From positions 1-20,587 of the IMG/VR virus record IMGVR_UViG_3300029862_000030: 20,587 nucleotides of DNA. The stretch is one strand, 5' to 3'. The stretch comes from a virus (lineage: Duplodnaviria; Heunggongvirae; Uroviricota; Caudoviricetes). The notes under the pieces were generated by a model. It searched no databases. It had not been told where the DNA came from and saw only the letters and a list, made by a program, of their open reading frames with translations. Below are positions 607 through 18,349 of this stretch, piece by piece. Each line of letters starts with the position of its first letter. Position 1 is the first letter of the stretch. The translations under genes and the position numbers were made by a program.

Positions 607-3600
607 TCAGCATTCCTCCGTCACGTCGCATGGACAGCATCACCGCCTGCACCCGCTGGTCAATCAGCTGCACAAGACTGCCTGCCGCCTCCGGCCCTAT
701 CTGTCCGTTAGCCCCGTCATTCTGAATGGCGATGTGGTAGACCGGGGAATACACCAGACCGGCGCTGCCGTTCATACTGCCCACCGCGCGTACGCCCAGC
801 GAGCCATCCGCCGCCCGGGTCAGGGGCATAATGGCTTCAGGTCCGGCTTCCCCCATCAGCCCGGCCCCTTTTGCAAACGCAAAGTACGTGGGCGTGTCCA
901 CAATGCTGTTGCTGTACGCACTCAGATTTGCCGATGTGTAAACACCACCTTTTGCGTTTGCCACTGCCCCCGAAATCCATCCGCCGACCGTACCAAGCCA
1001 CCCTCCGGCACCGGAGAGTGATTTCAGTCCGTTAACAATGGCTGCATTCATCAGAATTTTTGAAACTTCCCGGAGAACTGAACTCCCCCAGTTCCTCCAG
1101 TCCACAACATTCCCGGCCAGTGCATCGGAAATATTTGATACCAGCCCGTCCATCGTGGAAACGACAGCATCTGCCGCCTGCGAAGCATAATCGGTGGCAC
1201 TGTCTGCCCAGTTCGTCAGCCCCTCTTTGAGCCCGGCATTCCAGTTACTGCGTAAAGCATCAGCCTTTGCATAATAATCCTGCTGATCGCTGAGACGCTC
1301 TTCCAGATATTTTTTATTCAGCTCTTTCTCCTGTTTCCACAGGGCTTCTTCAATTTCTCCGGCCTGATACTGTCTCAGTAGCTCGTTATTTTTCTGCTCA
1401 AACTCCTGCCGGATGCTCCACATTTCCTGAAGTCGTTCACGCATCCGTGAGCCTTCACCATATCCCAGTAACTGAGCCTCATTTGATGCTCTGACACTGG
1501 CATTACTGTCCGCCAGACTGCTCTCATACGCAGCAAGCTGCTCACGAATCTTTTTCTGGTCGATAAGTGCTGCATTCTGCAAAAGCGTTTTTTTCTGCGC
1601 TTCTGACAGGGTTGATAATTCGCCCTGACTGACCTGATATTTCATCTTAGCCAGTTCAGTATTCTGCCCTGCCAGTGCTATCTGTTCTTTTTGCTGTTTA
1701 ATCAGCCGTTTATAAATATCCTCTGTTTTTTCCGCTTCGGTCTTTTTATGCGCTTTGGGTTTATTTGCCTGGTTATTTCGCCATGCATCCAGTGAGTTAT
1801 TTATATAATTCAGTCTTGCTGTCTGATACGCCTCTCCCACAAAGCCGAGATCATCCGCAGCATAACCCAGGCGGGCACGCTCACGAGCTTCCCCCTTCAG
1901 GCGGGACAGAGCCAGTTCGCGCTCGCTGTTATTCAGTGCGGTCTGCTGTTTATCATCCAGGGTTGCCTGTGGTAGCCGTAACGGTACATTCACCAGCCCC
2001 TGTCGCTGCTGAAGTAATTCATTACCGAGCCCGAGAAGGCGATTAAACTCGGTATGCTGCCCATTCATGATCAACAGGGACTGATACGCTTTGTTTTGTT
2101 CCGCTGCCTGTTGACGGATCAACGCCACCCGTCGCTCCTCCAGCCCGGCAAGCACATCCTGAATGGATTGCGCTTTGCCCTGCATTTGAGTGAGGCGAGA
2201 CTGTTCAACTGCCAGTTGATTTGTTGCTTCTGCAAGCCCTTCTGTGACAGTTTTTACCGACGTCATGTGGTTAATCATAAAACCGTTATCGGTTGTCCAG
2301 CCCGGGTTTGCCAGCACATACTGATAGCCAGCAATTTTTTCCTGTAAGGATTTAATCTTACTTTTCTGCTCGTCAATTAACCTGTTTTGCTCCTTCAGTG
2401 CCTGTCGCGTCTTTTCCTCATTATCTGACGCTTCAGGAAGCGACATTGCCGACGTTTTCTGGCGAATTTCGTCGATTGTTGCGGCATACTGGCGTGCAGA
2501 TTCTCTGGCCTGCTCCTGATTCTGATACATCGTGTACCAGGCCGCAGCCCCCAGCATGACGAGTCCCGGCACACCACCAACCAGCCCCAGCGCGCCACTT
2601 AATAAACGACTCCCCACTGACGTAACATTATTCAGCGTTGTCTGTGCCGCTGTTCTGGCCGCAATATTACGGGTAAGTGACACCTGGGCAGCTGTCAGCT
2701 TCGCTTCTGCTGCGGCCTGCCTTTCGGTACCGCGAGCAGCAACAACCGCCTGTTGCGCACGATAAACCGCCGCACGCGCCCTGGCGGTTGCTATCTGTGT
2801 CCCCCGAAGTTGCACTTCAGCAAGAGCCACTTCGTTTCTGGCTGCAGTAATTAATCCGGCAGTTGCAGATCCAGCAGACGACGCCATATTGCCAAAATAT
2901 CGGGCTACCCCGACGGCAACCAGAGCACCGGCAGCGGTTGCCACGGTGTCAATATTGCCTGCAATACCATTCAGCACACCGGAGAGCGTCTTCGTCACTC
3001 CGCTTGCCTCGTTCGCACCACCAACCCAGGCCATAAAGGCGTTTTCAACTTTGGTTGCAGAGGATGAAACCGTATCAGGCATTGCCGCATATTCATCACG
3101 TAATGCCCCAAGCTGACTAATCAGTGCAGGAACAACCTTATCGGCGGTCAACTTTCCGTTATCCGCCATGGCCTTCAGATCCTTACGGGCAACTCCCATT
3201 CCCGCAGCCAGAGCACGAATAACACGATCGCCGTTCTCATTCACCGAGTTAAACTCTTCACCGCGCAGCACTCCCTGCGCCAGAGCCTGACTGAACTGCG
3301 TGATCACCGAACTGGCTTCTGCTGTACTGGCACCGGATAATTTCAGGCCCGTGGAGATCGCCTCGGTGACTTTCAGTACCTCCTCAGAACTGTAACCATA
3401 CTCCCGCATGGAAGCTGCAGAGCGGGCAAAAAGGCTGGCGTTATCAGAAAAAGCCGTCCCCGTTCTCTGGCTGATCGCCATTAATTCACGCTGTGATGAC
3501 TGAAAATCATCACTGGACTGTGAGGCCTGCTTCAGACGGGCATTTACTGAATTCCACTCATCGGCGAGAGAAATAAGATGACCGGTAGCAAAAGCCCCGG

Positions 3601-15338: not shown

Positions 15339-15344
15339 GCATGT

Positions 15345-15374
15345 AAAAAGGCCCCAACACATGTGCGTGGGGCC
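15345..15374 (-). terminator. Candidate minus-strand intrinsic terminator upstream of the holin (possible tR'-like element)
   Basis: Minus-strand reading gives a GGCCCCA/TGGGGCC stem around an 11-nt loop containing the palindrome CACATGTG, followed by TTTTTAC. Confidence 0.45.
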
Positions 15375-15574
15375 TGAGAGTATACATGGTTTCAGTCAAC
15401 TGCATGGTGCCGGGTGCCTCCCGGTGAATTCAGTACCAGCACCTGAATCCGCGATTATCCCATATACCTACTCGCTGATTGCCCATCCGCACAGGGGGAT
15501 TCACCATGCCAGTTTCTTTTAACAAACTCCCCGCAAAACAGACAACTGTCAACCGTCTGAATTGTGAGACATTT

Positions 15575-15614: not shown

Positions 15615-15691
15615 TGGCGCGTTGTACTGGATTCGAACCAGTGACCGATTGCTTAGAAGGCAATTGCTCTGTCCGGTTGAGCTAACAACGC
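15615..15691 (-). tRNA. tRNA-Arg (anticodon TCT, reads AGA), argO-like
   Basis: Hand-folded from the reverse complement: acceptor stem GCGTTGT/ACAACGC, D arm GCTC..GAGC, anticodon stem ATTGC/GCAAT with loop CTTCTAA, T arm CTGGTTCGAATCCAG, discriminator G and an encoded CCA. Similar to E. coli argU. Confidence 0.8.
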
Positions 15692-15704
15692 AGGGTACAG
15701 ATAA

Positions 15705-15781
15705 TGGACCGCCATCGAGGACTCGAACCCCGCGCAACCAGCTTCGAAGGCTGGTGCTCTATCCTGATGAGCTAATGGCGG
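15705..15781 (-). tRNA. tRNA-Arg (anticodon TCG as read by hand, reads CGA), argN-like
   Basis: Hand-folded: acceptor stem CCGCCAT/ATGGCGG (C1-G72), D stem GCTC/GAGC, anticodon stem CCAGC/GCTGG with loop CTTCGAA, T arm CGGGGTTCGAGTCCTCG and an encoded CCA. The anticodon call depends on my loop assignment. Confidence 0.65.
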
Positions 15782-15788
15782 TATGTGA

Positions 15789-15864
15789 TGGTGGCCCTTG
15801 CTGGATTTGAACCAGCGACCTGGCGATTATGAGTCGCTCGCTCTCACCACTGAGCTAAAGGGCC
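15789..15864 (-). tRNA. tRNA-Ile2 (anticodon CAT, lysidine type, reads AUA), ileZ/ileX-like
   Basis: Hand-folded 76-nt sequence GGCCCTTTAGCTCAGTGGTGAGAGCGAGCGACTCATAATCGCCAGGTCGCTGGTTCAAATCCAGCAAGGGCCACCA, which closely resembles E. coli tRNA-Ile2 (ileX) as recalled. Anticodon loop CTCATAA. Confidence 0.8.
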
Positions 15865-15904
15865 GGGAGCCGCATAATAACGACGCGTAATTAATTCTTC
15901 AATA

Positions 15905-16243
15905 TCATCCGTTCTGGCTGACTAAATCCTGTACTTCCCGAACCGTCTGCTCAAAACGTTCAGTCTCCAGCTCAACGCCAATTGCACGACGCCCGAGCGC
16001 CAGTGCCGCTTTCACTGTCGAACCCGACCCCATGAAAAAATCTGCAATCAGGTCACCCGGACGACTGCTAGCGCTGATTATCTGCTGCAGCATTTCTGCC
16101 GGTTTTTCGCACGGATGTTTCCCGGGATAGAACTGCACCGGTTTATGCGTCCAGACATCGGTATACGGCACCTGCGCCGTCACGCCAAAATACCGCCGCA
16201 GTCGGCATTCACAACCACCAGCGCATTTAACGTTCAGGCACAA
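15905..16243 (-). pseudogene. 5'-truncated DNA N6-adenine/N4-cytosine methyltransferase remnant (C-terminal part only)
   Basis: The 112-aa ORF contains HPCEKP (the HPTQKP-type motif) and DFFMGSGST (the FxGxG AdoMet-binding motif) near its C-terminus. These are the C-terminal half of beta-class amino-methyltransferases. No DPPY motif or N-terminal half is present; the reading frame runs into the AT-rich region upstream of the porin. Confidence 0.6.
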
Positions 16244-16693
16244 AAAAACCCGCTCATCGGCGGGTTTAAGCTGTGTGACGAAGTAACTACTCTTAACAGC
16301 ATAACCAATTTTTTACGTACGTAAACTACTAAATGATATTTGTGAGAATGCCACCGAGTGTTCAAAACACCACCACAAATACATAAGAAAATTTCAACAA
16401 ATAACCAATTAATAATTTCAGATGTTATTTTTAGTTTGTTTAAATTAAGCTAAAGAATTATAGACTGCTTATAAATAAGTTCCATTAATATAAATTAGCT
16501 AATAGATTTATTTTTGTTCAAACAAGAGCCATAAATAGGATTAGATAGAAAAGGTTCAGATAAAAATAGAGATCTACTTCACAAATTAAATGAGAAACTA
16601 AAACTTACATCTTGAAATAATCACATTGATTAGATGAATATTTATCGCGCAGTGACATCATTTTTTAATAATAGTTCAAAAAAAGGGTGTACA

Positions 16694-17776
16694 ATGAAAA
16701 AATTAACAGTGGCAATTTCTGCTGTAGCTGCATCAGTACTGATGGCGATGTCTGCTCAGGCAGCTGAAATTTATAATAAAGACAGTAACAAGCTGGATCT
16801 ATACGGGAAAGTTAATGCCAAGCACTACTTCTCCTCTAATGATGCAGATGATGGTGATACTACTTATGCCCGTCTTGGCTTCAAAGGTGAAACCCAAATC
16901 AACGATCAACTGACTGGTTTCGGTCAGTGGGAATATGAATTCAAAGGCAACCGCGCTGAATCTCAAGGTTCTTCCAAAGACAAAACCCGTCTTGCATTTG
17001 CAGGCCTGAAATTTGGTGATTACGGCTCAATCGATTACGGCCGTAACTACGGTGTAGCATACGACATCGGTGCGTGGACTGACGTTCTGCCAGAATTCGG
17101 TGGTGATACCTGGACCCAAACAGATGTGTTCATGACTGGTCGCACTACTGGTGTTGCAACTTATCGTAACAACGACTTCTTTGGTCTGGTCGATGGCCTG
17201 AACTTTGCTGCTCAGTATCAGGGTAAAAATGACCGCACTGACGTAACTGAAGCCAATGGTGATGGTTTCGGTTTCTCCACTACTTATGAGTATGAAGGAT
17301 TCGGCGTGGGTGCAACCTATGCTAAATCAGATCGCACTGACGGTCAGGTCGCCTATGGTAAGAGCAAATTCAATGCCTCCGGCAAAAATGCGGAAGTATG
17401 GGCTGCAGGCCTGAAATATGATGCGAACAATATCTATCTGGCTACCACATATTCTGAAACTCAGAATATGACCGTTTTTGGTAATAACCATATTGCAAAC
17501 AAAGCACAAAACTTTGAAGCAGTAGCACAATATCAGTTTGACTTCGGTCTGCGCCCATCTGTTGCTTACCTTCAGTCAAAAGGTAAAGACCTTGGTGTTC
17601 ATGGTGACCGAGACTTAGTCAAGTATGTCGATGTCGGTGCTACTTACTACTTTAATAAAAACATGTCCACTTTTGTTGATTACAAAATCAACTTAATTGA
17701 CGATAGTAAGTTTACCAAAACAGCTGATATTGATACCGACGACATCGTCGCTGTAGGTCTGGTTTACCAGTTCTAA
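16694..17776 (+). CDS. nmpC: Outer membrane general porin, NmpC/OmpC/OmpD family
   Basis: The track ORF 16634..17776 contains the signal peptide [23 protein letters not shown] followed by [16 protein letters not shown] and a C-terminal ...VGLVYQF beta-barrel signature, matching NmpC as recalled. The start was trimmed to the MKKL Met; my nucleotide count in that line disagrees with the track frame by 1 nt, so the start is good to about 1 nt. It is on the opposite strand to the phage late genes and preceded by about 370 nt of very AT-rich DNA. Confidence 0.9.
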
Positions 17777-17779
17777 TCT

Positions 17780-17950
17780 GATTACGAAAAAGATATGTTG
17801 CGGGAGGCGTTGCCTCCCCAACATATAAGTGGCTCCCTCAAGCCACTTCCTTTAGAAGCACAACCTTGCTTCTAACTATATAAACCTTCTGTTATATATT
17901 ACCCTTTATTTTTGGGGGCGTCTCAACGCCCCATTTTTAATAATTTTTAG
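17780..17950 (+). ncRNA. Candidate structured 3' region / small RNA downstream of the porin (IpeX-like position)
   Basis: Three successive plus-strand hairpins (GGGAGGC-GTT-GCCTCCC, AAGTGGCT-CCCTCA-AGCCACTT, GAAGC..GCTTC) followed by an intrinsic terminator (GGGGCG-TCTCAA-CGCCCC then ATTTTTAATAATTTTT). In E. coli K-12 DLP12 the IpeX sRNA is reported downstream of nmpC; I cannot verify identity from sequence alone. Confidence 0.35.
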
Positions 17951-17965
17951 TAAACAATTGGCATA

Positions 17966-18349
17966 TTAATTAGAGTTATTAACAACGATATCCATCTCTA
18001 ACTGGATATCTAATGCCATTAACATCCCTTCAATTATGCCCTCAGCCTTCTGTAACCTTTTCCCGATATAACCATCAGAGCAGCAATGCTTACCTGCCAG
18101 TGACATGAATGTCATACCGACTACATAATAATCTACTAATAAATCGTGCAAATCGCTGTTGTTCTTTTTCAGACGGGCCATGCACCCGCAAATGATCATA
18201 GCGTCATCGTCACAACATTGCGGGCGAGATTTTACTTTTGAAGTAATTAATCCCTTAAAACCGGCGGCAATGGACGACCAGGTCACATCTTCATGATTAT
18301 TAGCCGCCCACGCTCCCCAACGCTCAAGAACCATCTGAATATCACGCAT
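17966..18349 (-). CDS. Late-gene antiterminator Q (DLP12 QuuD-like)
   Basis: The 127-aa product from the ATG at 18349 ([22 protein letters not shown]...) matches my recollection of E. coli QuuD. The track ORF starts 5 codons earlier at an alternative TTG. It lies downstream of rusA and ylcG, as in DLP12. Confidence 0.8.

Follow-up and report, generated by a model that had tools for sequence, protein, structure and literature searches.

In Stx phages, a regulator and a DNA methylase form a variable module between the late antiterminator gene Q and the tRNA genes (PMC8456039; PMC3491183, Fig. 5). Late-region DNA methylases of lambdoid and Stx prophages include BCI49784.1 of phage Stx2_112808 (LC567830) and the 'putative DNA methylase' of phiP27, and in these prophages the gene lies between Q/pR′ and a three-tRNA cluster (tRNA-Ile/Met, Arg, Arg). 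A porin of the lc/nmpC kind, placed after Q and before the lysis genes, is likewise already present in the PA-2 GenBank record and in the K-12 DLP12 annotation. The window analysed here, the whole 20 587-nucleotide stretch of IMG/VR record IMGVR_UViG_3300029862_000030, is a lambdoid prophage late region and reads along the minus strand in the order rusA (18934-18572), Q, a porin gene on the opposite strand, AT-rich DNA, a hairpin, an open reading frame (ORF) related to these methylases, tRNAs, STnc100 and the holin/lysozyme/Rz genes. We conclude that the ORF is very probably a pseudogene produced by an ancestral deletion of ~1.18 kb, that the unit containing it then spread by recombination, and that the neighbouring porin was not the cause. 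The features on which the argument turns are:

15615-15864, minus strand: tRNA cluster with a CAT-anticodon tRNA, Arg-TCG and Arg-TCT (ARAGORN, Rfam)
15874-15902, minus strand: sigma-70-like TTGAAG-17-TATTAT, a candidate tRNA promoter from a consensus scan only
15905-16201, minus strand: methyltransferase remnant, codons 255-352 plus stop of a 352-aa prophage enzyme
16202-16243, minus strand: 42-nt leader piece downstream of the terminator, ORF codons 1-14 (MCLNVKCAGGCECR)
16242-16267, minus strand: predicted intrinsic-terminator hairpin directly downstream of pR′ (terminator scan and RNA fold)
16291-16325, minus strand: putative late promoter pR′, assigned by homology to H-19B
~16329-18016, unstranded: porin cassette of the PA-2 lc/DLP12 nmpC type, between the Q core and pR′
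17966-18349, minus strand: late antiterminator Q of the QuuD type, 127 aa (PF06530, E=3.5e-53)

The ORF comprises 112 codons from a TTG start (15905-16243, minus strand) and matches the Pfam family PF01555 (N6_N4_Mtase) with E=2e-24. Its residues 22-101 fall on profile positions 135-220/221, so that the domain is represented by its C-terminal third alone, as against positions 1-219 in the 352-aa homologue. Within this part we find the HPCEKP helix (aa 43-48, 16117-16100), the motif I AdoMet-binding loop FMGSGS (aa 70-75, 16036-16019) and a GVELE segment, and both the profile and the C-terminal block of solved enzymes identify the HPxxKP and FxGxG elements as those of a beta-class N6/N4 methyltransferase. 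The original prediction, which had read a C-terminal beta-class fragment from the HPxEKP and FMGSGS motifs, is borne out here: the ORF is such a fragment, far beyond chance. It was also right that DPPY is missing. Motif IV, (D/N/S)PP(Y/F/W), is absent from the ORF and, in a six-frame translation of the whole window, from any methylase context; the two pattern matches in that translation, SPPH and SPPW, both lie in unrelated ORFs, and the window contains no partner ORF with DPPY.

As the reference for the intact locus we used that of the Stx2d phage Stx2_112808 (LC567830; here L003), in which Q is followed by a short intergenic block, an ORF of 65 aa that weakly resembles wHTH/TrmB, the 352-aa methylase with DPPY (2239-3297, spanning PF01555 profile positions 1-219) and the same three tRNAs. 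By blastn, window positions 16298 to 16203 align to L003 1712-1818, a segment covering the block behind Q and the beginning of the leader, and positions 16201 to 15574 align to L003 3001-3629 with 93% identity. Methylase codon 255 begins at L003 3001, and the protein alignment starts at the corresponding residue, L255; aligning the ORF with full-length methylases, as had been suggested for finding the breakpoint, thus places the break at codon 255, window position 16201. The remnant is colinear with intact loci on both flanks, with the leader upstream and the three-tRNA cluster downstream. The junction and the deleted content are defined by comparison with L003, relative to which 1182 bp (1819-3000) are absent; in L003 this segment holds the distal part of the leader, the wHTH ORF of 65 aa and the first 254 methylase codons, DPPY among them. 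The methylase-derived part that is left amounts to 98 codons plus stop (297 nt), or 28% of the full-length protein. In view of this, the claim that the N-terminal half is missing is sound as to truncation but too low as to extent (254 of 352 codons, ~72%, are lost), and the methylase sequence does not run to 16243, as had been assumed, but ends at 16201. Specifically, tblastn matches to phage methylases cover aa 15-112 of the ORF only, and the piece before them is homologous to L003 1767-1818 and to L009-L012, full-length loci in which it precedes the 65-aa ORF. On this homology, ORF codons 1-14 (16243-16202) are late-operon leader sequence that is in frame by chance.

The deletion junction lies at 16201/16203, with a single base, A16202, that matches neither parental flank. 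Its sequence (GTGAATGCCGA joined to CTGCGGCGG) is identical in 32 of 32 copies examined and includes a G for A in GTGAATG, which the parental flanks also fail to predict. L003 contains short repeats at both ends of the missing segment (GTGAATA at 1809 and 2987, TCT at 1820 and 3000), but the TCT microhomology predicts CCGGTCTGCGG, whereas CCGACTGCGG is observed. No parent with the exact left flank GTGAATGCCGA was found, which prevents a base-by-base reconstruction of the junction; when the left flank GTGGTTGTGAATGCCG was searched in IMG/VR, the related matches were all junction carriers and the other 27 were chance matches in unrelated DNA. We also looked for a second terminator in the deleted distal leader, but L003 1776-1860 folds no better than shuffled sequence (z=-0.2).

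Between the remnant and the porin lies a hairpin in which a stem of 8 bp (16267-16260 paired with 16253-16246) encloses a 6-nt loop; seven T follow (16248-16242), the RNA fold is -16.4 kcal/mol (z=-2.4), and the TTG 'start' of the ORF sits inside the T-tail. The hairpin block is kept in DLP12, PA-2, H-19B, Stx phages and PhiR49_2. Upstream of it, the region that aligns with H-19B (L005) 2471-2561 contains the predicted pR′, with a -35 of TTTACG (16325-16320), a 16-nt spacer, a -10 of TATGCT (16303-16298) and a start expected near 16291; a simple consensus scan did not flag this promoter. In H-19B the -10 is TATCAT and the predicted start, near 2508, is 258 nt before the tR′ T-run at 2765. The PR′-to-tR′ distance mapped experimentally in the Sakai Stx phages is 258 nt (PMC7547250), and this agreement supports the assignment of promoter and start site, which we regard as probable. 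Thus the frame does not dissolve into AT-rich DNA upstream of the porin, as had been proposed: the terminator and pR′ intervene, and the AT-rich sequence begins only at ~16329.

Several further observations concern this short region. A block of ~55 bp comprising the pR′ -10, the initial transcribed region and the hairpin (window 16244-16300, L005 2501-2561, L007 3501-3557) is 82-95% conserved across DLP12, PA-2, H-19B, 933W-type Stx1/Stx2 phages and SfIV. The late RNA mapped in the Sakai Stx phages (StxS) extends over 258 nt as far as a second terminator, which places the first hairpin inside StxS; the window has no second terminator before the tRNAs. The PA-2 record J02580 (L006) annotates a CRP-binding site at 1730-1750, equivalent to window ~16271-16291 in the initial transcribed region of pR′, as well as a second CRP-binding site nearer the start of lc. 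Because of this annotation it is possible that porin regulation and the late promoter overlap. Rfam holds no family for the short RNA from pR′ to the hairpin; a Trp_leader match of 26 bits fell below the gathering score and was disregarded. A comparative paper on pR′ (PMC6266700) mentions neither the methylase nor the tRNAs nor the porin.

The porin cassette comprises an AT-rich regulatory region (16329-16693), the porin gene itself (16694-17776, plus strand; OmpC-family, Pfam Porin_1 E=1e-150), a spacer rich in hairpins and the final ~17 Q codons. Its orientation opposite to the late genes, its slot between Q and the late promoter and its AT-rich upstream region are those of an lc/nmpC porin moron, and it is 88.6% identical to PA-2 J02580 over 1779 bp (window 18002 to 16244) and 87% identical to K-12 DLP12 nmpC. 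The DNA of the Q region is 99.3% identical to K-12 quuD, the name that RefSeq also gives to this gene in E. coli NMBU_W05E18 and VR50. H-19B represents the empty site: its Q aligns to window 18351 to 18017 and its pR′ block to 16328 to 16237, and the two segments are 86 bp apart in H-19B versus 1688 bp in the window. Homology between the Q of the window (127 aa) and that of H-19B (144 aa) ends at 18017 (17966-18016 versus L005 2385-2486), and both proteins match PF06530 over the whole profile; from this alignment, the 3′ end of Q seems to have been exchanged for cassette sequence, which leaves the protein with a different, shorter C-terminus. A stretch of 127 bp separates the deletion junction (16201/16203) from the nearest edge of the cassette (~16329), and it is an intact pR′-terminator-leader sequence, colinear with that of porin-less phages in which the methylase is intact.

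The junction is more widely distributed than its association with the porin. Intact versions in related prophages, which the original prediction had suggested looking for, were found as the 352-aa DPPY enzyme of Stx2_112808 and as the leader, 65-aa ORF and methylase together in 1905 of 5426 complete E. coli genomes. The identical deletion junction occurs in 104 of the 5426, with the same pR′-terminator block in 83 and with an adjacent porin in only 20. In IMG/VR, 26 contigs carry the identical junction: seven are porin-adjacent, 11 Q-adjacent and six PP2C-adjacent, and two are too short to be assigned. Upstream of the junction, these 26 contigs present at least five haplotypes, and three contexts occur overall, namely Q directly adjacent, the porin, and a PP2C phosphatase/kinase pair. 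For example, PhiR49_2 (PV340570) is 99.1% identical to the window from 16298 to 15500 (pR′ through the tRNAs) and has the same junction without a porin, its Q ending 132 nt before the junction; the differences between the two are all concentrated in the shared 55-bp pR′-terminator block. E. coli NRZ88308 likewise has the junction with Q directly upstream and no porin, while E. coli cM8a has it behind a different terminator, the PP2C phosphatase, the kinase and a different Q. The cM8a pair (L004 3467-4971), a PP2C-family Ser/Thr phosphatase and a Ser/Thr kinase, lies between Q and the late terminator and recurs in L044, L045, L049, L053, L059 and L063, in the slot that the porin occupies in the window. 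In the reverse case, the porin cassette and pR′-terminator block of the window are also found in PA-2 and DLP12, but the similarity ends at 16244 and neither has the remnant. The deletion is independent of the porin, since each occurs without the other.

These observations bear directly on the reading in which the porin, on its arrival, cut an intact methylase downstream of Q, its boundary being the breakpoint. The two are indeed near neighbours, 127 bp apart, and they occur together in the 20 E. coli genomes and seven viral contigs counted above. However, their boundaries differ (~16329 for the cassette, 16201/16203 for the deletion), the block between them is intact and colinear with porin-less phages that have the full-length gene, the same junction, A16202 included, is found without a porin in PhiR49_2, NRZ88308, cM8a and 19 of the 26 viral contigs (counting the two short ones), and the cassette occurs without the remnant in PA-2 and DLP12. 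Disruption by the porin is therefore barely credible, and the relative order of events, which the original prediction took to be fixed by the arrangement, finds no support in it. As the junction and the porin boundary are separate and each is found without the other, their adjacency in a mosaic prophage does not amount to causation. A naturally short intact homologue beginning near 16243 was also looked for and none was found; this confirms the truncation and has no bearing on the porin as its cause.

The related idea that the ORF is an intact short protein, for instance a small protein that binds AdoMet or a split-methyltransferase subunit, has some points in its favour. Split methyltransferases exist, 30 of the 32 copies have an open frame, and some databases as well as the PhiR49_2 record list the ORF as a 92-112-aa protein. 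In a word-indexed search that returned short proteins only, three database clusters covered 100% of the 112 aa, all of them junction carriers, while the other matches covered only the methylase-derived 84-88% and were mostly contig-edge 'partial' entries. The stronger test is the DNA, where 93% homology runs from codon 255 through the stop codon into the tRNAs and breaks sharply at the junction. In addition, the 14 N-terminal codons are leader and are found in junction carriers only, the window lacks a DPPY partner, the TTG lies in the terminator T-tail, no in-frame start has a canonical Shine-Dalgarno sequence, and PGAP calls a pseudogene. We consider an intact short protein very unlikely. 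Repeated deletion at a hotspot, as opposed to one origin followed by spread, could draw on the microhomology available in L003 (the GTGAATA and TCT repeats at both ends). Yet independent events would be expected to yield several junction variants, and a product of this microhomology would read differently from what is seen. Instead, a single junction sequence recurs in all 32 copies with two bases, the G in GTGAATG and A16202, that neither flank predicts, which argues for one ancestral deletion and leaves recurrence highly improbable.

In the history that we favour, of one ancestral deletion and subsequent spread, the ancestral late operon would have run Q, pR′, hairpin terminator, leader, 65-aa wHTH ORF, 352-aa methyltransferase and three tRNAs, continuing into stx or other morons and the lysis genes, as in many lambdoid prophages. 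In one ancestral phage, a deletion of ~1.18 kb would have fused methylase codon 255 to the leader at a point ~45 nt beyond the terminator, with loss of the wHTH ORF and of codons 1-254, which hold the N-terminal half of the fold and DPPY (motif IV); a single origin is the probable one given the uniform junction. The unit of leader, remnant and tRNAs would then have spread by homologous recombination among lambdoid phages, coming to lie behind at least three upstream modules. In the window it is joined to a Q-porin-pR′ module of the PA-2/DLP12 type, within or just after the shared 55-bp pR′-terminator block.

A small difference in the leader adds to this picture. Twelve nucleotides (ATCGGACCAGTA, L003 1776-1787) are absent from the leader of the window (at ~16232/16233) and of PhiR49_2. 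Full-length loci and the cM8a-type remnant (L004) retain these 12 nt. Judged by this alignment, the gap is a second small deletion, and the cM8a type is the older form of the remnant unit because it keeps the nucleotides that the window and PhiR49_2 have lost.

What the remnant now does, if anything, can be gauged from its content and setting. Motif IV has an established role in amino-methyltransferases. Because this motif is missing, the remnant is predicted to be unable to transfer methyl groups and probably lacks function; it is expected to be transcribed passively within the Q-antiterminated late transcript. The sequence is not visibly decayed, the frame being interrupted by frameshifts in only two of the 32 copies. 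Those two are IMG/VR contigs (L015 and L043) that are shifted within or just before motif I, and L043 also contains an N, so that a sequencing error is possible. Divergence since the deletion is low. The allelic variants of the remnant copies mirror those of the full-length genes, which suggests that the open frames reflect youth, or gene conversion from the abundant full-length copies, and not selection; alternatively, the 30 open frames could reflect some retained use. No canonical Shine-Dalgarno sequence precedes any in-frame start of the ORF. The Shine-Dalgarno duplex energies at the seven in-frame starts overlap the values of real genes in the window, and a fragment of this predicted ORF may be translated.

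It is conceivable that the unit has been kept because the deletion is useful, or that the remnant encodes a small peptide that binds AdoMet and is produced on induction. The open frames in 30 of 32 copies and the three upstream contexts leave room for this, and we think it unlikely. With the deletion, the late leader is 1.2 kb shorter and the wHTH regulator and the orphan methylase are gone, so that the timing or level of expression of the tRNAs and late genes (stx in other phages) could change.

The tRNA cluster travels with the remnant, starting 339 nt after the junction in every junction contig that reaches that far. Its CAT-anticodon member (15789-15864, minus strand) is called Met by ARAGORN and tRNA-Ile by RefSeq in VR50, NMBU_W05E18 and NRZ88308; the tRNA-Ile call presumably refers to a lysidine-modified CAT anticodon. 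The candidate promoter TTGAAG-17-TATTAT lies just after the stop codon of the remnant and 10 nt upstream of the first tRNA, and a transcription start driving the tRNAs has been reported in an Stx2 phage (PMC7547250). Further along, between the tRNA cluster and the holin gene, an STnc100 sRNA (RF02076) is matched at full length by Rfam (15339-15538, minus strand; 133 bits, E=1.5e-29).

Set against the known systems, the remnant occupies the same late-operon position as the intact methylase of Stx prophages, to which it is 96% identical in amino acids over the last 98 residues and 93% identical in DNA into the tRNAs. Unlike that locus, the window lacks the 65-aa wHTH ORF and codons 1-254, as expected of a deletion derivative. 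In beta-class enzymes the middle region holds the target-recognition part. The full-length homologue matches the solved beta-class enzymes M.RsrI (1eg2), CcrM (6pbd), M.MboIIA (1g60) and DpnA (5hek) in two stretches, in the beta-class order of an N-terminal DPPY block and a C-terminal block with HPxxKP and FxGxG; in contrast, the remnant matches only the second, AdoMet-side block and has neither motif IV nor the middle region. Similarly, the porin of the window resembles the PA-2 lc moron and DLP12 nmpC in occupying, on the opposite strand, the slot from Q to the pR′-terminator block, whereas in PA-2 and DLP12 the terminator leads straight toward the lysis genes without leader, remnant or tRNAs.

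The remnant itself is an ordinary pseudogene that is already known. The same 297 nt carry a RefSeq annotation as a pseudogene, 'missing N-terminus', in VR50 (ECVR50_RS11800), NMBU_W05E18 (FVA71_RS10900) and NRZ88308 (AC6N0D_RS10650). VR50 and NMBU_W05E18 are like the window in having an adjacent porin and quuD; the junction region of VR50 is identical to that of the window, while the genes downstream of the tRNAs differ. In PhiR49_2 the same remnant appears as XSB43083.1, a 92-aa 'DNA adenine methylase' annotated as a gene and not as a pseudogene. The practical value of the comparison is thus one of annotation correction only: 15905-16201 should be treated as a pseudogene and not as a methylase gene, and so should the PhiR49_2 'DNA adenine methylase' CDS, which is the same remnant. 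More generally, the shared pR′-terminator block behaves as a recombination linker of late-region modules, in keeping with the accepted modular evolution of lambdoid phages.
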